A stretch of 64,000 bases of DNA from Minisyncoccota bacterium. Lineage in GTDB: Bacteria > Patescibacteriota > Minisyncoccia > Phycocordibacterales > UBA5272. Of this stretch, positions 2,279-22,519 are shown in pieces (within the stretch, counting starts at the first letter, position 1; every line of letters starts with the position of its first letter). The stretch lies in assembly GCA_018063165.1 (NCBI GenBank), contig JAGOQU010000001.1:130330-194329 (forward strand), given 5' to 3'. The translations under genes were made by a program, and so were the position numbers. The notes under the pieces are model-generated. The model saw nothing but the letters and a program-made list of their open reading frames with translations, did no database searches and was not told where the DNA came from.

Positions 2279-3415
2279 TTATTTTTTTGAACATATTTTT
2301 ATAAGCTCCTCTATATCTTCTTTTTCTAATGAAGTATCTGTACCTTTATTAATCGCGTACATAATCGATGTGTCGCTTGTGGTGTGTCCTATACCAAGAG
2401 CATGACCAAGTTCATGTGTTAGAACACGATTTAGTTTTATTTCATTTGAAAATTGATAAATATATATTTTATTTTCTTGCCCACTATACAATCCTTCTGT
2501 AAACTTTTTGCGAGAAACTGCATTACTTGTTGCTACTTTTTCGTTAGCATATGCAACATATTTATTGTAAGCGTCTATTTTTTTATTGATTATTGATAAT
2601 TCTTGAGTAATAGTATCACGAAGTATTGTAAGCTCATCTGCGTCTTTTTGTAAAGATTCTTTTTCTTTGTTTAATTCATCAAATATATTTTTTGGAGCAC
2701 CTCCTTTTTCATTCCAGGAAGCAACACTGTCGTTATAAGCTTTTTGATGTATGTTATAGCTTTCAACTTTTTGAAGATATGTATTTTTATGTTCAGTGAA
2801 CTCTTTTTCCATAGCTTCATAGTCTCTTTTTAGTACTTCTGCAGCTTCTTTTGTGTTATTTATTTCCACACCATTTAAAACATTATTATCGGTTCTTTGC
2901 TGCCTCTCATCATATATAAGATGTATGCTTAGACTAGAAGATAATTGTTGTGGGTCATATATAAATAATTTTTTACCTACTGCGTTATTCCAGAGAGATG
3001 TAGATTCTTCTATTTTTTTTAAAAAATAATCTTTAGATATGTTGAATCTTGTATCAAAAGATCCAAGTGTATAGTAAATAGGAGTATTACAAGGATTGCT
3101 TCTTCGTGAGTATGTTGCATGATCATAATCTTCTTCAATGGTTTCTTGTTCAGTTTTAGGGGCGATATGTGTTGAAGTTGCCAGTGTAAAAACCTGAGTA
3201 AACGTATCTTTTGTATTATTAATATCATCAGTTAGTTTTTCTTTTTTTGTTATTTCTTCTATCTGACTCACGTCTTTTTTTTGTACACTGTGAGTAACTA
3301 CCTGTGTGTTATTTTTTGATTCATCGTTAGTGAACGTTGAAACAACATTACTGTATAAAGCGAAGATAGAAATAACTATAATACTATATGCCTTTGTTAA
3401 TAGGGAAGATATCAT
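2279..3415 (-). CDS. Membrane-anchored metzincin (matrixin-like) zinc metalloprotease
   Basis: C-terminus carries HELGHALGIGH followed by the Met-turn SIMY. There is an N-terminal hydrophobic anchor and a central coiled-coil-like K/E-rich region. Confidence 0.75.
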   Translation of the reverse strand: MISSLLTKAYSIIVISIFALYSNVVSTFTNDESKNNTQVVTHSVQKKDVSQIEEITKKEKLTDDINNTKDTFTQVFTLATSTHIAPKTEQETIEEDYDHATYSRRSNPCNTPIYYTLGSFDTRFNISKDYFLKKIEESTSLWNNAVGKKLFIYDPQQLSSSLSIHLIYDERQQRTDNNVLNGVEINNTKEAAEVLKRDYEAMEKEFTEHKNTYLQKVESYNIHQKAYNDSVASWNEKGGAPKNIFDELNKEKESLQKDADELTILRDTITQELSIINKKIDAYNKYVAYANEKVATSNAVSRKKFTEGLYSGQENKIYIYQFSNEIKLNRVLTHELGHALGIGHTTSDTSIMYAINKGTDTSLEKEDIEELIKICSKK

Positions 3416-3451
3416 GGTGCATTCTTGGGTGTTTATTTCTTGATTACGTAG

Positions 3452-3679
3452 TTACTCTTCACTAAGCATTGTTGTATAAGAATTAACAACAGCTGGTCCT
3501 AAAAGTGCTATGCCAATCATAGGAAGTACAATAGCAAGTATCGTTACCCACATAGTAACAAGAAAATATTTTCTTGTTTTTTCTATCGAAGAATACATCG
3601 CGTCTAGCTTAGTAGCTTGTTCGTCTAGTTTATTTTTTATTTCTTGGTCCATATAAACAAGTATATAGTACTTTCTCAT
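3452..3679 (-). CDS. Small membrane protein
   Basis: 75-aa ORF with one C-terminal TM helix and no recognisable domain. Confidence 0.35.
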   Translation of the reverse strand: MRKYYILVYMDQEIKNKLDEQATKLDAMYSSIEKTRKYFLVTMWVTILAIVLPMIGIALLGPAVVNSYTTMLSEE

Positions 3680-14395: not shown

Positions 14396-15304
14396 TTATT
14401 TTTTTATGTTTGAAGATTGGTTATTTGTGTATTGTTTAAGTATGGCTTGTATTCCAGCTAGATTTTCTTCCCATTCAATTGTTTCATGAGATTGTAATTC
14501 TACCGTAATAGCGGGGATGTTGATTGAAGATAGCCAATCATCTGCAGCTCCTGTTATTTCGTATGCATCAAATGATTGTATTGCTGGATATCCCGATGCT
14601 TGAGAGTAGAGATTCATAAGTGTGAGCGTTTCTTGCATTATTCCATTCTGACATTGTGAAGCAAAGACACTATTAGACTGACTATGCCAAAAAATAACAG
14701 CAGTTGGCTTTTCGGTAAGCATGAAATGTTGTATTGCTTTTGTTTCCGGTTCAGAGAAGGGTGCTGATCCAGCACTTACTATGTTTGATTGCCATGTGCT
14801 TTTTGGTTTCCATTTACAATCAAAATTACGATTTAGGTCTACATTGTTAGCATTAAAACGTCCGGATGTTAAAATTTTTTTATCGTTAGATACATCCTCA
14901 CGAGTAAAACGACCTTCTTTACCTGTAACTTTATACGCACCATCAGGATTAACAGAAGGTACTATACTTATGGTTATGTTTTTTGGAATACTTGTGGGGT
15001 TATTGGTGAGATAATCAATGAAAGTATATGAAAGTAAAATACTATTCCATTCATACCCACCATGAATACCACCAACAAAAACAAGATGAGTAGGTCCATC
15101 ACCGAAAGTATATTTTTCAATAGCGCGTTTTTCTATAGAAGTACCAATAATAGTTTTAATTGGCCAGGTAATTACTTTTTCCTCTTTTTTGTTAGTAATT
15201 TCTATTACTGGTGTTTTTTCGTGAAGTTTTATATATGTTCCTAGACTAAGGATAATAAGAATAAAAACTATTGCAATATTTTTTTTGGATAAAAGTGGTT
15301 GCAT
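14396..15304 (-). CDS. M14-family zinc carboxypeptidase, membrane-anchored, catalytic residues intact
   Basis: GGIHGGYEWN (Zn His/Glu region), VDLNRNF (the Asn-Arg motif), FWHSQSN (second Zn His) and AITVELQ (catalytic Glu). The ATG at 15304-15302 overlaps the upstream paralogue's stop (TAATG). Confidence 0.7.
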   Translation of the reverse strand: MQPLLSKKNIAIVFILIILSLGTYIKLHEKTPVIEITNKKEEKVITWPIKTIIGTSIEKRAIEKYTFGDGPTHLVFVGGIHGGYEWNSILLSYTFIDYLTNNPTSIPKNITISIVPSVNPDGAYKVTGKEGRFTREDVSNDKKILTSGRFNANNVDLNRNFDCKWKPKSTWQSNIVSAGSAPFSEPETKAIQHFMLTEKPTAVIFWHSQSNSVFASQCQNGIMQETLTLMNLYSQASGYPAIQSFDAYEITGAADDWLSSINIPAITVELQSHETIEWEENLAGIQAILKQYTNNQSSNIKK

Positions 15305-16203
15305 TATTTGGTGTAATATGTGAGTAATGCTTTCACTCCTGCTATATTTTTTGCCCAATCTGTGCCGGTATGATTTGTTAATAAAATACTAATAGCTGGA
15401 ATATTATTTTTTGCAAACCAGTTCACCATATCTCCGGTTGTTGCGTAAAAATCAAAACTGTCGTATGCAGGGTATCCGGAGGCTGTAGCAAATACTTTTG
15501 TAATCGCGCTTGTTTCTGTGGATACGCCATTGTTACAACTGGATGCAAAAACACCACCAGCTGCACTGTACCAAACTACTACAGATATAGGTGTATGTGT
15601 TTCTGTATATTCTTTAATAGCTTTACTTTCCGGTTCAGAGAATGTGTTACTTCCAGCGCTTACTGTTTTATTTTGCCATACACCTTCTGATTTCCAGTTA
15701 CAATCAAAATTTCTACTTAGATCAACATTATTTCCATTGAATCTACCAGATGTAACAACACTTTCTAAGGTTGATACATCTGTTTTCAAAAATCTTCCAG
15801 TTGTTCCTACGACTTTATGTAGACCATCAGGATTCATAACAGGGATAATTGTAATCTTTAGAGTGTCTGGAATACTATTTGGGTTTGCTTTAAAATAGTC
15901 CATAAGATCGTATGCAAGTAAAACCGTGTTCCATTCATATCCACCATGAATACCTCCAATCAGTAAAAGTTCATTCGTTCCTTTTCCGTAGTGATATGCA
16001 ACAATCTCATTTCCTTCAACAGATGTACCTATAACTGTTTTGGTTTTATCAATAACAGTTTCTGTGGTAGAAGAGTGATTGTTGGTGTTCTTTATTTCTT
16101 CAGTGTCAGTCGTTAAATCTATTTTCTCTACAGGTCTATCAAGTAACATATATACACCTACACCAATGATCAGTACCAAAATCACAATAAATATATTTTT
16201 CAT
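15304..16203 (-). CDS. M14-like paralogue with substituted catalytic residues (probable pseudo-peptidase)
   Basis: Same fold and the same GGIHGGYEWN segment. However VDLSRNF has Asn replaced by Ser, VWYSAAG has the second Zn His replaced by Tyr, and AISILLT has the catalytic Glu replaced by Leu. Confidence 0.65.
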   Translation of the reverse strand: MKNIFIVILVLIIGVGVYMLLDRPVEKIDLTTDTEEIKNTNNHSSTTETVIDKTKTVIGTSVEGNEIVAYHYGKGTNELLLIGGIHGGYEWNTVLLAYDLMDYFKANPNSIPDTLKITIIPVMNPDGLHKVVGTTGRFLKTDVSTLESVVTSGRFNGNNVDLSRNFDCNWKSEGVWQNKTVSAGSNTFSEPESKAIKEYTETHTPISVVVWYSAAGGVFASSCNNGVSTETSAITKVFATASGYPAYDSFDFYATTGDMVNWFAKNNIPAISILLTNHTGTDWAKNIAGVKALLTYYTK

Positions 16204-16244
16204 ATACGTTAAGTATACACTTCTCACAGCAATTAGATATCTTC

Positions 16245-17177
16245 CTAATCAAATATATGTATGAGATAAGTATCTATTTCTCTTTGGTCAATATCGTAGA
16301 AATTAAGTGTATTCTTGTGAAGATATGTAGCCAATTCTATACCAACAAAACGCCAATGCCACGGTTCATAAACGTAGTATTTATTACCTTTTGGATAAGA
16401 AAGTACAAATCCAAAACGGTAAGCATTATTAAGAAGCCATGTATAAGCGTCTGTTTTATCAAAAGCAGTAGTAAGTTGACCATTAAGTCCTGTTGTTATA
16501 AAGTCCAGTGTTACCCCAAGTTGATGCTCAGAATATCCTTGATCAGCAGAAAAGGTGTTGGAAGTTCCAGCGCCATATTTCACTGTATATGCTGATTTGA
16601 GTGACTTTTGTTCATCAAAGGATCTATATCCAGATTTTACATAAAGAGTAACTCCATCTGCTTTAGCAGAAGTAAATAAATGTAATAAATAAGGCAAAGA
16701 CTTTGTAGAAAAATATTCTTGTCTTGTTGAACTGTAGGTATACTCAGGTGGAATAGTACTTAAATCTAATGGTTTATAGTTTTCGTTTAAAAAGTATACT
16801 TTCGAATATTTTTTTAAAAGCTCAGGGTCTATTTGAGAAAGTTTCTGCAAATCACCGACTGTACCAGATATGGAACCAACTGTTTGTGCTACGCCACCAA
16901 CTTGATTTTTTACTGATTCAATATTTTGTTGTGTGTTGTTAAGAACATCAGAAATTCCTGTTGTCTGTGTATGTAAGTCAGTGATATTTTCTGAGAGTAA
17001 CTTCGTATTTTGCATTAAAGCATGTGAAGTAGAAGACAATTCACTGTTAAGAAAAAGTATATCTTTTTTTAAACTAGATATTTGTATATATCCATACACA
17101 ACAGAACCTCCTAATACAATAAAAATAATTCCAGTTAGAAAAACATATGATGATTTTTTTGGTGTATGTTGTTGCAA
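16245..17177 (-). CDS. M15 (VanY-type) D-alanyl-D-alanine carboxypeptidase family protein
   Basis: SGYRSFDEQ...SEHQLGVTLD (H-x6-D) ...EPWHWRFVG. There is an N-terminal TM plus a coiled-coil linker. Confidence 0.75.
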   Translation of the reverse strand: MQQHTPKKSSYVFLTGIIFIVLGGSVVYGYIQISSLKKDILFLNSELSSTSHALMQNTKLLSENITDLHTQTTGISDVLNNTQQNIESVKNQVGGVAQTVGSISGTVGDLQKLSQIDPELLKKYSKVYFLNENYKPLDLSTIPPEYTYSSTRQEYFSTKSLPYLLHLFTSAKADGVTLYVKSGYRSFDEQKSLKSAYTVKYGAGTSNTFSADQGYSEHQLGVTLDFITTGLNGQLTTAFDKTDAYTWLLNNAYRFGFVLSYPKGNKYYVYEPWHWRFVGIELATYLHKNTLNFYDIDQREIDTYLIHIFD

Positions 17178-17233
17178 GATGTATATAAGTATAGCACTAA
17201 TGAGTTTATGTGTTGTTATCTTGTTGTGTGTTA

Positions 17234-17791
17234 TTAATTTCTTGTTTGCCAGAGTATTAAGTCGAGCATTTTTGTTTTTGATATTTTAGAAGTTGGATAT
17301 TCTTTGGTGAATTGTTCAACCAAATATTTACCAGTTTCTGTTTTAAGAAATAGAGAAAATTCTTTAACCAAGGTTTGATAAATTTTAAGAATTTTTACTT
17401 CTCTCTCTTTGTCATACGAGTAGGGTAGTTTTAATTTAAGATTCTTCAAAACGATACTATCTATAACAGGCATCTTTGGATCTATTGTCGCAACAAGTTT
17501 ACTTGCAAAAGAAGATTCTATTTTTCCTGTCTTCTTAAAAAGTTTCGACAGAGTATTTTTAAAAGTTACAGTATCCTTTTTACTTTTTTGAAGTAGGGAA
17601 TAAAATTCTTTTTGCCACTCTTTGTTTCTGTGGGGTGTAATTTTATAGAAGTAATTAAATTTCTTTTGGAACTCAGCATCTTTGCTTACGTCTTTCTTCA
17701 TTACTTCATTTTGAATCCACAGGTATTGATCAAGACCTTTTTTAACCTTGGGTAGAGCTTCGTGAATTTGTTCCTTTGTAAGCGATATCAT
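17234..17791 (-). CDS. Hypothetical protein
   Basis: 185 aa, K-rich, no recognisable motif. Confidence 0.45.
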   Translation of the reverse strand: MISLTKEQIHEALPKVKKGLDQYLWIQNEVMKKDVSKDAEFQKKFNYFYKITPHRNKEWQKEFYSLLQKSKKDTVTFKNTLSKLFKKTGKIESSFASKLVATIDPKMPVIDSIVLKNLKLKLPYSYDKEREVKILKIYQTLVKEFSLFLKTETGKYLVEQFTKEYPTSKISKTKMLDLILWQTRN

Positions 17792-17884
17792 TGTATATAT
17801 TTTGATTTTAACATTATTTTTTAAATATAGTTATATATTTTCAATGTGTTACTAAATACAATAATCATACTAAACAATAACAAG

Positions 17885-18133
17885 ATGTTATCCATTGAAA
17901 TTGACCTAGACGAGATAGGAATGAAAGAGAAGATAAAAGATGAGGTTAATAGATTCAAACGCTTCCAAATAGGTGTTTTAGGTGTTAAGGATAGTACCAG
18001 TGTAGGTGATGTGGATATACGAAACTATGCGAAGTATATTTTGAGAGATGGGAAAGATATTGAGAAAAGAGAGTTGTTAAGTTGTCTAAGAAGTAGGATT
18101 CTACTAAAGAATAAAGAATTGAGTTTAGTTTAA
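17885..18133 (+). CDS. Hypothetical small protein
   Basis: About 82 aa from the internal Met. No HTH recognised. Confidence 0.3.
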   Translation: MLSIEIDLDEIGMKEKIKDEVNRFKRFQIGVLGVKDSTSVGDVDIRNYAKYILRDGKDIEKRELLSCLRSRILLKNKELSLV

Positions 18134-18155
18134 TTTATTTATCCACAGTTTGTTC

Positions 18156-18187
18156 TATTGTATTAGAACAAATGTTCTAATACAATA
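18156..18187. promoter_or_regulatory. Perfect 15-bp inverted repeat with a 2-bp spacer, upstream of the methyltransferase
   Basis: TATTGTATTAGAACA aa TGTTCTAATACAATA, about 90 bp upstream of the methylase start. No T-run follows it. Confidence 0.5.
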
Positions 18188-18274
18188 ATAATGTAAGCAA
18201 AACAGTGTGTATTTAAGGATAAAACAATACACAATCATTTACTAAAAGAAAATGTTAAACTAAATAGTAATTTT

Positions 18275-19384
18275 ATGACACCTGTTAACAAAAAAACAAA
18301 ACTTCAAACAATAAAAAAGCCACTAGATTTATTTTCTGTACAGAAAAAAGAGGTAAAGAATAAGAATGCACTTAAAATGATTGATCTCTTTGCTGGCATT
18401 GGTGGCATACGACAGGGATTTGAAAGTGTTGGGTGTGAATCTGTTTTTTCATCAGAGTGGGATGCTCCCGCTCAAAAAACTTATGCTGAAAATTTTGGAG
18501 ATATTCCGTATGGTGATATAACTCAAATTGATCCTGAACAAATTCCTTCCTTTGATATTCTGTTGGCTGGATTCCCATGTCAGCCATTTTCTCAGGCAGG
18601 AAAAAAGCTTGGTTTAGCTGATACACGTGGAACACTTTTCTTTGATATAGCTAAGATAGTTAATCATCACAGACCAAGAGTTGTTTTTTTGGAGAATGTG
18701 AAGAGATTTAAAAGTCATGATGGTGGAAAAACATTTGAAACAATTAAATCAATTTTAGAGGATCTTGGTTATCAGATTCATGCTAAAGTTCTGAACGCAA
18801 GGGATTTTGGAGTTCCTCAAAACAGAGAAAGAATTTATATTATTGGATTCCTTGGAGAAGTTGATTTTTCATTTCCAGAACCATTAGGAAAAAAGACTAG
18901 ACTTGGTGATATTTTAGAAAAAAATGTAGATTCTAAGTACACTCTTTCAGACAAGCTTTGGGCAGGACACCAAAGAAGAAAGAAAGAGCACGCCGCTAAG
19001 GGGTATGGTTTTGGGTATTCTATGTTTAACGAGAAGTCAGAATATACTAGTACAATTTCTGCGCGATACTATAAAGATGGTTCGGAAATATTAATTGAGC
19101 AAGAAGGTAAAAACCCAAGAAAGCTCACACCTCGTGAAGCTGCAAGACTGCAAGGTTTTCCTGATACTTATAAACTTCCAGTAAGTGATATGCAAGTATA
19201 TAAACAGTTTGGTAATAGTGTAGCTGTGCCAGTTATTAAAGCACTTGCTAAAGAAATTGATAAAGCTCTTAAAACTTTGAAACAGAAGAAAACTTCAGAT
19301 CTTAGTAATATTGATATTGATAAAATTAAAGCGGACAGTGTTAAAACTGTTATGTTGAATCTTAAAAAAGAAGCTACTGTTTAG
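18275..19384 (+). CDS. DNA (cytosine-5)-methyltransferase
   Basis: Motif I DLFAGIGG, motif IV GFPCQPFSQAG, motif VI FLENVKRF, and the C-terminal QFGNSVAVPV. Confidence 0.95.
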   Translation: MTPVNKKTKLQTIKKPLDLFSVQKKEVKNKNALKMIDLFAGIGGIRQGFESVGCESVFSSEWDAPAQKTYAENFGDIPYGDITQIDPEQIPSFDILLAGFPCQPFSQAGKKLGLADTRGTLFFDIAKIVNHHRPRVVFLENVKRFKSHDGGKTFETIKSILEDLGYQIHAKVLNARDFGVPQNRERIYIIGFLGEVDFSFPEPLGKKTRLGDILEKNVDSKYTLSDKLWAGHQRRKKEHAAKGYGFGYSMFNEKSEYTSTISARYYKDGSEILIEQEGKNPRKLTPREAARLQGFPDTYKLPVSDMQVYKQFGNSVAVPVIKALAKEIDKALKTLKQKKTSDLSNIDIDKIKADSVKTVMLNLKKEATV

Positions 19385-20151
19385 TGGGTATCTGTAATTA
19401 GTGATTCCCAATAGTTATTATTAGCTCTCCATTGTGAATATGGTCTTGGGTTACCTGCATACATTCCACTATCAAAAAAAATTAAACCTTTCTTTACTCC
19501 CGTTATCCAAGTTTTAAAATTTATTGGATCACCAAAGACAATACTTGTGTAAACACCTTCAGAATTTTTGTTGCATTTAAACCAGCCAAGTTTATTAAAC
19601 TTCTTCTCAACTCTTTTCTTCATTAACTCAGCACTCCAGCTTGCAATTATCAATCTATTTTGTTGAAGATCTTTAGGAACTATATTATTTTTATCTAGTC
19701 TTTTGTCTTTTTCAAATGAATATATCGTGAGAATGTTATCGTATTCATCAATTTCAAGTTTCTGTCCAAAATCATTATATGTATTAATCTTAGGACAAGG
19801 TTTTCCAGACCAAGAGTAACGGTTTTCTTTTTCTACGTTAGGTGCTCCAAAAAATTGAAGAAACTGATCTCTCTTTAAAATATTTACTTTCTTTTTGAAC
19901 AATGAGTAGTCAGGCGACCAGTCACCAAAAGTGGTTTTACTTGCTGTGTGGTTTTTCATTTCAAAACCATCTATATCAGGCGCATTATTTCCATTATGTG
20001 CAATTCCCATTTGTGTTTCAAGCCAATGACCATCTTTACCGTCATGTCCAGCATTTGAAGAAGTGGTGTCAGATTTTTTACCTCTAACTTTTTTATCAAA
20101 TAGAGTGATTATCTTTCTTTTTGTTTCCTCACGATTTTGAGTATTTGTCAT
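19381..20151 (-). CDS. Putative type II restriction endonuclease, MutH/Sau3AI-like PD-(D/E)xK fold
   Basis: Convergent with the methylase and overlapping its stop by 4 bp. The segment HWLETQMGIAHNGNNAPDIDGFEMKNHT resembles the MutH catalytic region [26 protein letters not shown] (PD...ExK). Confidence 0.5.
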   Translation of the reverse strand: MTNTQNREETKRKIITLFDKKVRGKKSDTTSSNAGHDGKDGHWLETQMGIAHNGNNAPDIDGFEMKNHTASKTTFGDWSPDYSLFKKKVNILKRDQFLQFFGAPNVEKENRYSWSGKPCPKINTYNDFGQKLEIDEYDNILTIYSFEKDKRLDKNNIVPKDLQQNRLIIASWSAELMKKRVEKKFNKLGWFKCNKNSEGVYTSIVFGDPINFKTWITGVKKGLIFFDSGMYAGNPRPYSQWRANNNYWESLITDTH

Positions 20152-20181
20152 TAAATGAATACTATCAAATAATGAACTTTA

Positions 20182-20685
20182 TTACGAGTTTTCATTATCT
20201 AAAATAGTCTTTGCTTCAGAAACTAGCGACTTAGTCACACTTAAATTCCAAGCTCTCATCGTACTGTGCCATTTTCTAAATTTTAAGAATTGTCCCCAAG
20301 AAAGTTCTAAGATTTTTTTTGGTTTGTAGTTTTTATAGATTTGCACAATAACAACATATTCAAATTTTTTATCAGGGGTAGTATTATCATTTTCTCCACA
20401 TCCATAAAATACACCAGTAGTTGCCCCAGGTTCTGAAATTGTCTTGATACTGTATCTTTCTCCTTTCCTACTTAGTGCGTCCACATTCTGAGTACCTTCT
20501 GGTGCTGCATGTAATTTTGGTAATCCATTTATTGAATTATATGTCTCAACAACGAGAAATTCACCTCGTTCACCAACCATGTTATTAGTTCTAACAAGCT
20601 CACGTTTTTTAAGTTCTTGTTGAATTTCACCATACGCCAACCATAATTCTTCGTTATTTAGTTGATTAAGATCTATTTTGTTCAT
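20182..20685 (-). CDS. Hypothetical protein in the same operon as the nuclease
   Basis: 167 aa, 30 bp upstream of the nuclease gene. It contains ...NVDALSRKGERYSIKT..., which is only weakly nuclease-like. Confidence 0.45.
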   Translation of the reverse strand: MNKIDLNQLNNEELWLAYGEIQQELKKRELVRTNNMVGERGEFLVVETYNSINGLPKLHAAPEGTQNVDALSRKGERYSIKTISEPGATTGVFYGCGENDNTTPDKKFEYVVIVQIYKNYKPKKILELSWGQFLKFRKWHSTMRAWNLSVTKSLVSEAKTILDNENS

Positions 20686-20705
20686 AAATAGCTTTAGTAA
20701 GTTTC

Positions 20706-21596
20706 TTAGATTTTAAATTTTTTAAATGCACACTTAAAGTAGAGGGTTTGTAGAAATGAAAGAATAGGGTAAAAGATCTTATTTGCTTTTAAAATTTTAG
20801 GTAGTATTGTGTTTGCTAAACCTAAAGAAACTATTCCATACATAGTTGTTAGAAAATTATTTGTAAAAATATTAGTTAACCAAGCTGGTTTATAATTAAA
20901 AAAATAAAATAATCCATAAATAAAAAGGTGAAAAGAACAATATAATGCAGCAACCCATGCTTCAACCTCGTATTCAAAGATTTTAATACCTCTACCATTT
21001 GTACTAACAATATCTTTTTTTAATGATTGGTTTAGGTAATATTTTGACTCAGTTAAATTCTCAAAAATATGTATTTTTTTACCGGATATGAAATACTGTA
21101 AACCTGAAAATATATTGAATACGAAAATAATAATTGAAGCAAGAATTCCATGAAACAAAAATAGTTTCGTTCTTATTGATATGCCAGCAATAGGTCTCGT
21201 TGGTTTTAAATGCTGAATATCTACTTGCTTTAGTATGTCTATGCCGGAAATTATTTTATTATTTTTATCAAAAAAATTGTTTATTTTTATATTATAAAAA
21301 TAATCTTTTTCAGAAATTAACTCTATAGGCCAATCTCTTCCTCTTTTAAAATTTGAAGATGAAATTGTTATACCATTTTCAGTTTCTTTACCATAACTAA
21401 CTGATACAACAACAGGTTTCAGTATATACTCTTTCTCTATGTCTTCATTTCTAATGTACACCCTAAAAAGAGATTTAAACCCCTTAGTTTCTCTTTCTTT
21501 ATAAACAGAAAAGCCAACTTGAGTATCCTGTAAATCAACCGGTTCTAAAAAACCATTTTGAGGTAAATTAAATTTTAATTTAAATTCATTTTTCAC
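20706..21596 (-). CDS. Membrane protein with an N-terminal cytoplasmic domain of about 150 aa followed by 4 TM helices
   Basis: 296-aa ORF, first gene after tRNA-Gln and 20 bp upstream of the 167-aa gene. No domain recognised. Confidence 0.5.
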   Translation of the reverse strand: MKNEFKLKFNLPQNGFLEPVDLQDTQVGFSVYKERETKGFKSLFRVYIRNEDIEKEYILKPVVVSVSYGKETENGITISSSNFKRGRDWPIELISEKDYFYNIKINNFFDKNNKIISGIDILKQVDIQHLKPTRPIAGISIRTKLFLFHGILASIIIFVFNIFSGLQYFISGKKIHIFENLTESKYYLNQSLKKDIVSTNGRGIKIFEYEVEAWVAALYCSFHLFIYGLFYFFNYKPAWLTNIFTNNFLTTMYGIVSLGLANTILPKILKANKIFYPILSFLQTLYFKCAFKKFKI

Positions 21597-21640
21597 TTTT
21601 TAAGTTTTAAGCTCTTCGGGCACTTGAATCTGATTCAACT

Positions 21641-21714
21641 TGGCTGGGGTACAAGGACTCGAACCTCGATACTCAGGACCAAAACCTGATGTCCTACCAT
21701 TAGACGATACCCCA
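21641..21714 (-). tRNA. tRNA-Gln (anticodon UUG)
   Basis: My own fold. Acceptor TGGGGTA/TACCCCA with U1-A72 (typical of bacterial tRNA-Gln). D-stem GTCT/GGAC. Anticodon stem TCAGG/CCTGA with loop TTTTGGT. T-arm CGAGG-TTCGAGT-CCTTG, discriminator G, then CCA. Confidence 0.85.
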
Positions 21715-21875
21715 ATGTAATATGTAGCACGTACTTACTCTTTATTGTCCTTCATATCAAGGACAGTAATCTCTTAGATAACCGAGAGACTACACTTAGA
21801 AGATACTATCATATTTAAAGTTTTTTTTCCATTAAAGTATGTGTGTAAAATAGATAATAAAGAAATGATACTTCT

Positions 21876-22310
21876 TTATATTTCTTTTGATAAAGAAAGA
21901 ATAGCTTCTGTTTCTTTTTGATTAAAAATACCTGTATCTAAAAAAAGATTTTTTGCTCGTGTAAGACGAGGGCCTTTATATGTTTTTAGTATTGTTTTTG
22001 CGTAGGGTTGTATATCTTGTATAGAACCTTTTCGAATATCTTCTTTTGAAAGTAACTGTTCTTCAAACATATAGTCAAGTGCAAATGGTGTACCTAAACG
22101 TATTTCTTCAAAAGCTTTATCTAATAATTCTTTTTTTACCCATTCATATGTAAGTGATGTTTCGCTAGTTACTTCTATGTTAAAAAGAAAAAGTAAATCT
22201 TCTTGAATGTGTCTAAATTTTGGAACAAATTCAATAATTGTTTCATTAGAAGGTGATATGGGTGATCTTTTTTCTAAAGAAATAGTAGAATTATTTTGAA
22301 GTGACTCCAT
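21876..22310 (-). CDS. Hypothetical protein
   Basis: 144-aa ORF, no motif recognised. Confidence 0.45.
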   Translation of the reverse strand: MESLQNNSTISLEKRSPISPSNETIIEFVPKFRHIQEDLLFLFNIEVTSETSLTYEWVKKELLDKAFEEIRLGTPFALDYMFEEQLLSKEDIRKGSIQDIQPYAKTILKTYKGPRLTRAKNLFLDTGIFNQKETEAILSLSKEI

Positions 22311-22519
22311 ATATATAAAGTATAATCATCTTTATATAAATAAACAAACAAAGAAAAATATTTTTTGTCAATTATTACTATGTTTTTTGTCTTGTTTTTG
22401 AACAGATATGTTGATGTATATTTTTTTACACAACAACACAAAAAAATCGCTTGCGCGAGAATAGAAAGAGAGAGTATACTCATTTCTATTACTACGTTAT
22501 TTTTTATATTCCTCTTTGT

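Follow-up and report, generated by a model that had tools for sequence, protein, structure and literature searches.

BisI is a small homodimeric PD-(D/E)XK enzyme that cuts within GCNGC only when the site carries two to four 5-methylated cytosines. The prototype, from Bacillus subtilis T30, is a type IIM enzyme (G5mC^NGC) and belongs with BceYI and Bce95I to a Group I subgroup that cuts GCNGC with 2-4 5-methylcytosines (5mC, m5C). Its gene adjoins an inactive C5 methylase pseudogene (PMC4926085). In another family of modification-dependent nucleases, MspJI, about half of the members adjoin 5mC methylase and vsr genes, which its authors called intriguing (PMC2938202). Here we analyze a BisI-like gene and its neighbor in a 64,000-nucleotide (nt) stretch of the genome of a Minisyncoccota bacterium (assembly GCA_018063165.1, contig JAGOQU010000001.1, positions 130,330 to 194,329; hereafter the window). 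The two open reading frames (ORFs), ORF1 (a membrane protein) and ORF2 (the BisI-like protein), carry the source-genome locus tags KBC41_00830 and KBC41_00835. An earlier reading made from the letters of the window, the sequence-only reading, had joined them with the adjacent restriction nuclease in an operon reminiscent of composite defense or abortive-infection loci. We consider it about 75% probable that the two are neighbors through insertion and not partners, ORF2 lying in a decayed, once-mobile cassette beside a backbone gene, ORF1.

ORF2 is a BisI orthologue, an uncharacterized member of the BisI family and, by prediction, a type IIM, m5C-dependent enzyme. The two proteins are of almost the same length, 167 and 168 amino acids (aa), and are 50% identical over their whole length (164 aa, BLASTP E = 4e-52; the BisI query was the sequence printed in PMC11347163 Fig S6, machine-read with a few letters dropped). 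ORF2 also has the N-terminal helix of BisI, the GE(x)GE(F/Y)L helix, the catalytic LQAAP.GTQN(V/I)DALS...RYSIKT block, and the C-terminal RWH..MRAWN block. Residues 5-165 match the PADLOC model mREase_II (PDLC03205, type II methyl-directed restriction enzyme) with an E-value of 2.6e-56, and four sister PADLOC models match as well. The gene is annotated as hypothetical because in Pfam it has only a sub-threshold match, to DUF6998, and the NCBIfam search returned nothing for ORF1 or ORF2. A search of both ORFs against PHROGs gave weak matches only, all to families of unknown function, and a literature search on DUF6998 / PF22522 gave no match.

Structural comparison points the same way. A PDB search with the single ORF2 sequence gave a weak match to Eco15I, and a profile of 27 ORF2 homologues matched Eco15I (8q5m) with E = 1.3e-4 over residues 5-158. 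The AlphaFold2 model of ORF2 (predicted local distance difference test, pLDDT, 70.5) has helices at residues 11-27 and 42-51, then three strands, then more strands and helices. The top 11 Foldseek matches of this model in the PDB were Eco15I and NhoI, followed by PvuII and DpnI; the E-values for the Eco15I and NhoI entries (8RPX, 8Q5N, 8Q5M, 8Q5O) ranged from 2.7e-7 to 4e-5. The best structural match is to the N-terminal domain of NhoI/Eco15I, with the Glu, Asp, and Lys aligned, although the identity is ∼20%, these enzymes have QxK where ORF2 and BisI have SxK, and they belong to the subgroup needing 3-4 m5C.

The sequence-only reading had noticed in ORF2 a weak nuclease-like stretch, NVDALSRKGERYSIKT, and had recognized no described family. 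The stretch turned out to be the true catalytic motif, a PD-(D/E)XK motif (D69...S79-x-K81) common to BisI; the second statement does not hold, given the identity to BisI, the PADLOC match, and the Eco15I and NhoI structures. Aligned to the AD...QIK motif of Eco15I, E42 falls on the Glu of helix alpha-1, D69 on the Asp of AD, and S79-I-K81 on Q-I-K. Mutation of any of these residues abolishes the activity of Eco15I (PMC11347163). All 27 genome-derived homologues of ORF2, which come from several phyla, have E42, D69, S79, and K81, and 40 further positions are likewise invariant; in a second alignment, S79 is conserved at ≥90%. BisI itself reads ...DALS..RYSIKT..., with SxK as in ORF2, which makes SxK a variant native to the BisI/BceYI/Bce95I subgroup. 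For this reason, the change from Q to S in the catalytic motif was dropped as a clade-specific oddity.

The minus strand carries, in this order, tRNA-Gln(UUG), ORF1, a 20-nt gap, ORF2, a 30-nt gap, and a 256-aa nuclease ORF, the tRNA gene lying 44 nt upstream of ORF1 (Table 1). The ORF coordinates, the two gaps, and the place of the nuclease as third gene are thus as the sequence-only reading had them. Gaps of 20 and 30 nt are too short to hold a terminator, and a scan of the locus for promoter and terminator consensus sequences gave matches no commoner than in shuffled sequence. Both ORFs are genuine genes, each having many conserved homologues: for ORF1, a word search gave 32 clusters and a profile search 484 (at 50% identity), and for ORF2 there are 584.

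ORF1 is a lineage-specific membrane protein of the genomic backbone, linked to the tRNA-Gln gene and located outside the cassette. In its closest relative with genomic context (L040; 71% aa identity), the order orf97, orf144, tRNA-Gln, membrane gene is kept, with an inserted IS110 transposase; the tRNA-Gln gene, in the same position, has anticodon CTG and 88% nucleotide identity. The nucleotide similarity between L040 and the window stops exactly at the stop codon of ORF1, and unrelated genes follow. Among the ORF1-family loci (L001-L011, L040-L042, L123-L125), we inspected 12 contexts other than that in the window; they were mostly housekeeping, there was no conserved partner, and none contained a C5 methylase or a BisI-like gene (0/12). 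The neighbors included leucyl-tRNA synthetase, Sua5, and dCMP deaminase; GreA with aminoacyl-tRNA and seryl-tRNA synthetases; ribosomal S12-S7 and NUDIX genes; radical-SAM and acetyltransferase genes; and a sigma factor, polysaccharide genes, an nSTAND NTPase (L042), and a region with HigB and an N6/N4 methylase (L004). Homologues also lie directly 3' of tRNA-His and near tRNA-Ser. Overall, members of the family closely follow a tRNA gene on the same strand in four of 13 contexts (Gln, Gln, His, Ser), and they adjoin a NUDIX gene in 2-3 contexts. Reciprocally, an ORF1 homologue was found in none of the 108 BisI-like loci described below. The two genes had been proposed as a pair that might recur beside other restriction-modification or defense genes; such recurrence was seen in none of these loci, and the housekeeping contexts together with the end of L040 synteny at the stop codon take ORF1 out of the pair, an outcome that the sequence-only reading itself had named as refuting its proposal.

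The same applies to its proposed role as a membrane effector in abortive infection: neither the 108 loci nor the 12 partnerless contexts lend anything to this mechanism. The predicted architecture, a 150-aa cytoplasmic head followed by four transmembrane helices, survives in outline. The AlphaFold2 model (pLDDT 89.5) does have an N-terminal domain and then four helices (139-171, 213-232, 247-269, and 276-290); the domain is beta-rich and comprises ∼135 aa, and only the first two helices are strongly hydrophobic. All members of the family have ∼290-320 aa and the same architecture. ORF1 has no PADLOC match and no significant match in Pfam, NCBIfam, or PHROGs (a Pfam match to Relaxase_M is spurious), ten of its distant relatives fall into no Pfam family, and a structural search with the model found no solved analogue. 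ORF1 therefore marks an unannotated, confidently foldable membrane family of Patescibacteria with some 480 clusters at 50% identity.

The cassette was inserted just 3' of ORF1 and spans ∼17.2-20.7 kb of the window, ∼3.5 kb in total. It comprises a serine-recombinase remnant, an m5C methylase, a LlaMI-like CCNGG nuclease, the BisI-like nuclease, and, probably, a 185-aa ORF. The idea of a composite defense locus is retained in part: ORF2 adds a second nuclease to the methylase and the LlaMI-like enzyme and moves together with them, and there is no membrane effector, as ORF1 is outside. The remnant corresponds to the last ∼80 aa of a protein of 443-449 aa; in particular, tblastn aligned the 443-aa ORF of L048, over its residues 358-437, with window positions 17888-18127 at 62.5% identity, and ORFs in L028 and L076 match the remnant similarly. 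These ORFs cluster with a 496-aa ORF of L021, whose N-terminus is resolvase-like on reading the sequence, and the remnant is accordingly taken for a decayed mobility gene, a putative serine recombinase. Members of this recombinase-like cluster flank modules of BisI-like and methylase genes in L021, L028, L048, and L076. The recombinase remnant suggests that the cassette was formerly mobile.

The 185-aa ORF has a homologue with 54% identity in the Saccharibacteria locus L021 (245-793) and in L059, and both loci also hold a methylase that is 72% identical, a BisI-like gene, and a serine-recombinase-like ORF. Searches of Pfam, PADLOC, and NCBIfam gave no significant family match for it; a weak PADLOC match to type IV Cas11 (6.6e-5) is likely spurious. 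It is probably cargo of the cassette.

No tRNA-derived direct repeat was found within positions 16000-22500, and the suggestion that the locus is a tRNA hotspot is consequently unsupported. A tRNA-integrated genomic island was also considered and rejected: the direct repeat is missing, the recombinase remnant has only ∼80 aa, and the gene beside the tRNA is conserved backbone.

Table 1. Genes of the cassette and its upstream neighbors (positions in the 64,000-nt window).
Feature	Coordinates	Strand	Remark
tRNA-Gln(UUG)	21641-21714	minus	ARAGORN
ORF1, 296 aa	20706-21596	minus	GTG start
ORF2, 167 aa	20182-20685	minus	ATG start
LlaMI-like nuclease ORF, 256 aa	19381-20151	minus	
C5-cytosine DNA methyltransferase ORF, 369 aa, full length	18275-19384	plus	
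Serine-recombinase-like remnant ORF, 95 aa	17846-18133	plus	
185-aa ORF	17234-17791	minus	

To place ORF2 among its relatives, we surveyed species-representative genomes and metagenome contigs by peptide-pattern scans, which yields a sample of close relatives biased to this clade. We found 108 BisI-like loci, whose proteins are 52-84% identical. Collapsing near-identical copies left 88 loci, 49 of which had at least 1.5 kb on both flanks. Among these 49, a C5 methylase lies in the same tight co-directional block in 29 and within 3 kb in 33, and a Vsr gene is present in 17 (genuine Vsr by PF03852, 3.4e-20); roughly one locus in three lacks a nearby methylase. The nucleases found as partners fall into at least six type II restriction families, and the m5C systems have at least six specificities. 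The order of a BisI-like gene followed by a LlaMI-like gene, as in the window, recurs in L079 and, in a decayed form, in L013. That BisI-like genes recurrently sit inside m5C methylase operons is, to a modest degree, a new finding of this comparison. The clade is a common component of operons that combine methylase, restriction, and Vsr genes and have many different specificities, as opposed to the original view that most homologues stand without a companion methylase.

The hosts of the BisI-like loci belong to many lineages of Patescibacteria and also include metagenome-assembled genomes (MAGs) of Gammaproteobacteria and Devosiaceae and a single-cell genome of Aenigmatarchaeota. The clade is thus spread over candidate-phyla-radiation bacteria, metagenome-assembled Proteobacteria, and a DPANN archaeon, which implies wide horizontal transfer across domains. 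Within loci L012-L039, the proteins are 54-81% identical, the hosts being many classes of Patescibacteria, Gammaproteobacteria/Pseudomonadales MAGs, Devosiaceae, and the Aenigmatarchaeota single-cell genome.

Some copies are pseudogenes. In L024, the BisI-like gene (3079-3570) has an in-frame stop, and L063 and L120 carry truncated ORFs; in all loci with such copies (L024, L062, L064, L063, L120), the gene has an in-frame stop or is a truncated or split ORF, and there is no adjacent C5 methylase.

Compared with the described systems, ORF2 is closest to BisI, and both have a C5 methylase gene close by. It differs in its host, a genome of Patescibacteria (candidate phyla radiation), and in the methylase, which here is full length with a type IIP nuclease as its partner, while the neighbor of BisI is a pseudogene. 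The cassette also resembles the LlaMI/ScrFI systems that recognize CCNGG: the nuclease matches RE_LlaMI, it is paired with a C5 methylase, and CCNGG is depleted in the window. By contrast, in the window and in L079, a BisI-like gene directly precedes the nuclease gene. To our knowledge, LlaMI/ScrFI-type systems have not been described with a BisI-type third gene. The loci of the MspJI/LpnPI type are similar in that a modification-dependent nuclease is found inside an ordinary-looking m5C restriction-modification operon, often with vsr (PMC2938202); however, these nucleases form an unrelated family, have SRA-like and Mrr-like domains and more than 400 aa, and cut away from the site.

The remaining comparison is with Vsr, likewise a small nuclease that accompanies C5 methylases in similar operon positions. 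ORF2 has no Pfam Vsr match (none to PF03852 at E ≤ 1), the Vsr profile finds no Vsr in the window, and many operons with a BisI-like gene carry a genuine Vsr gene in addition; on these grounds we rejected the identification of ORF2 as a Vsr. The idea that ORF2 could be the type IIP nuclease belonging to the methylase was rejected as well: BisI-like proteins stay constant in sequence next to methylases and nucleases of diverse kinds, and GCNGC is not avoided.

Several points weigh against the reading of ORF2 as a BisI-type nuclease in a cassette independent of ORF1. The 20-nt gap would still permit a transcript common to ORF1 and ORF2, and a local, lineage-specific interaction of ORF1 with the cassette is formally conceivable. 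The linkage to methylases comes from a survey biased to this clade, and in 2016 most BisI homologues were stated to lack a companion methylase (PMC4926085). The ORF2 model is only moderately confident, and its TM-scores to Eco15I/NhoI are ∼0.45-0.5. The C-terminal methyl-sensor dipeptide, (H/R)(V/I/T/M), which makes contact with the internal 5-methyl groups, was compared position by position with the alignment in PMC11347163 Fig S6: it reads S141-T142 in ORF2, R-M in BisI, H-V in NhoI/Eco15I, and, for the majority of the clade, K-T, so that the second position fits and the first, S in place of the R of BisI, does not. The HMMER alignment to Eco15I instead sets H-V opposite T142-M143. The m5C dependence and GCNGC specificity of ORF2 would be those of a prototype with only 50% identity, and two BisI homologues cut unmodified DNA (PMC4926085).

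The restriction-modification pair next to ORF2 is as the sequence-only reading had described it, a nuclease beside a methylase. The 256-aa nuclease matches Pfam RE_LlaMI (4.8e-63) and MvaI_BcnI (3.7e-17) and PADLOC REase_II (1.4e-72), and is predicted to be a type IIP enzyme cutting CC^NGG, the specificity being taken from the family name. The methylase covers positions 1-323 of the 324 in the Pfam DNA_methylase profile (3.5e-108) and also matches TIGR00675 dcm (1.3e-105). The two genes are convergent, with a 4-nt tail-to-tail overlap. This is the sole C5 methylase in the window, which contains no second protective one. CCNGG is depleted in the window, with an observed/Markov-expected ratio of 0.56 (0.34 for CCSGG), and this fits an active LlaMI-type system in this lineage. 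GCNGC is not depleted (0.95), as would be consistent with unmodified sites being left uncut by ORF2.

Two other sites deviated in the same counts. GGCC is strongly under-represented in the window against base composition (0.32), and less so against the Markov expectation (0.76), and CCGG is over-represented against the Markov expectation (1.44). No GGCC restriction-modification system was found in the window.

From these data we infer a defense logic with two arms. The type IIP enzyme would cut incoming DNA that lacks C5mCNGG methylation, the methylase protecting the host, while the BisI-type dimer would cut incoming GCNGC sites with several 5mC, that is, densely methylated or foreign m5C DNA. 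Such substrates might be m5C-substituted phage genomes, phages with promiscuous C5 methylases, and rival or invading GCNGC methylase systems. The C5mCNGG sites of the host would not be BisI substrates. The methylated C5mCNGG site and the BisI site have the inner methylated CNG in common and differ in the outer base pairs alone, which NhoI reads solely via water molecules; BisI leaves Dcm-methylated C5mCWGG uncut (PMC8281217). The two arms would be compatible, because BisI spares C5mCWGG, GCNGC is not avoided, and there is no second C5 methylase in the window.

Going further, we raise tentatively the possibility that selection has made the BisI-proper clade an arm of m5C restriction-modification operons (e.g., M-R-BisI-Vsr), coupled to them in function, and that it is not a free-standing type IIM enzyme. 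In such operons, the BisI-like nuclease could block the escape of phages from type IIP restriction by cytosine hypermethylation or, alternatively, could keep the linked methylase, or methylation in excess, in check. The specificity of the nuclease would stay fixed, and that of the partner system would vary (CCGG, GCGC, RGCGCY, GGNCC, CCNGG). A functional linkage would be relevant to the question of how bacteria join conventional restriction with the modification-dependent kind against phages for which methylation is a means of escape. If the arm is indeed coupled, restriction, modification, and an anti-hypermethylation nuclease would make up a recurrent three-part architecture not described for BisI.

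The BisI-like clade might, instead of restricting foreign DNA, serve C5 methylases as an m5C housekeeping accessory, nicking T:G or other 5mC-derived lesions in a Vsr-like or Vsr-assisting manner, or policing off-target methylation. Its strong and repeated association with m5C methylase operons, which represent at least six different specificities while its own sequence stays 54-84% identical, would suit such a role, as would its frequent location at the usual place of vsr and the tolerance of BisI-family enzymes to 5mC-to-T changes in the site, T:G mispairs included (PMC11347163). We nevertheless find it unlikely. Vsr proper stands alongside in the 17 loci noted above, and the BisI-like gene is consequently not a simple substitute for it; in about a third of the loci, no methylase lies close to it. 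Moreover, the prototype BisI is a proven double-strand m5C-dependent restriction enzyme (PMC4926085), and Eco15I binds 5mC:G much more tightly than T:A (PMC11347163).

It is very improbable that ORF2 is a BisI derivative which has lost methyl dependence, or an inactive or decaying passenger. There are precedents for the former in Bce1273I and Bth171I, BisI homologues that cut unmodified degenerate sites (PMC4926085), and decay is seen around ORF2, both in the recombinase of the cassette and in the interrupted or truncated BisI-like genes of L024, L063, and L120. ORF2, however, is full length, and the invariance of the catalytic and 40 other positions over 27 homologues from several phyla points to purifying selection; a nuclease cutting unmodified sites also sits badly with the lack of a second protective methylase in the window and with GCNGC not being avoided.

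Finally, that ORF1 as membrane effector, ORF2 as its partner, and the nuclease form one three-gene composite defense or abortive-infection operon is hardly credible: the three genes are tightly packed on one strand with no room for a terminator, and two ORF1 homologues do have defense-like surroundings (HigB with the N6/N4 methylase in L004, the nSTAND NTPase in L042), but ORF1 is absent from 108/108 BisI-like loci, its 12 other contexts have no BisI, no C5 methylase, and no conserved partner, the similarity to L040 ends at its stop codon, it has no PADLOC match, and ORF2 recurs with restriction and methylase genes without any membrane gene.

With ORF2 taken as a BisI-type enzyme of an inserted cassette and ORF1 as a backbone gene, a false lead is removed, as there is no new membrane-effector defense system at this locus. 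In its place, a hypothetical protein of Patescibacteria genomes gains a specific and testable identity, a BisI-type 5mC-dependent endonuclease, and its relatives offer more BisI-type enzymes for 5mC mapping tools.

Two other gene groups recur near BisI-like genes. In at least five loci, a conserved three-gene module, for proteins of ∼630, 283, and 251 aa, follows a methylase-BisI-Vsr block (L033, 3424-6158+; L034, 7248-10639; L037, 7193-10699; L096; L099; and, partially, L057). A Pfam scan of the ∼630- and 283-aa proteins gave no match, and the ∼630-aa protein has, by eye, a GHKL-ATPase-like N-terminal motif. Possibly, the module is a companion of m5C methylase systems that has not been described before. 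In addition, a small MazG-like protein and a ∼680-aa protein that combines a Schlafen-type helicase, a Peptidase_S24 domain, and a weak GIY-YIG match form another recurrent defense-island neighbor (L012, 9353-11722; L023, 3624-5997; L050; L051; L054). The pair repeatedly lies directly upstream of the BisI-like gene, or, in L012 and L043, downstream of it.

Elsewhere in the window, two tandem paralogous ORFs of ∼310-320 aa on the minus strand (14396-15358 and 15304-16227), with motifs such as GGIHGGYEWN and NVDLNRNFDC, look by eye like membrane-anchored zinc carboxypeptidases. They are adjoined by a VanY-like-looking ORF at 16245-17177.

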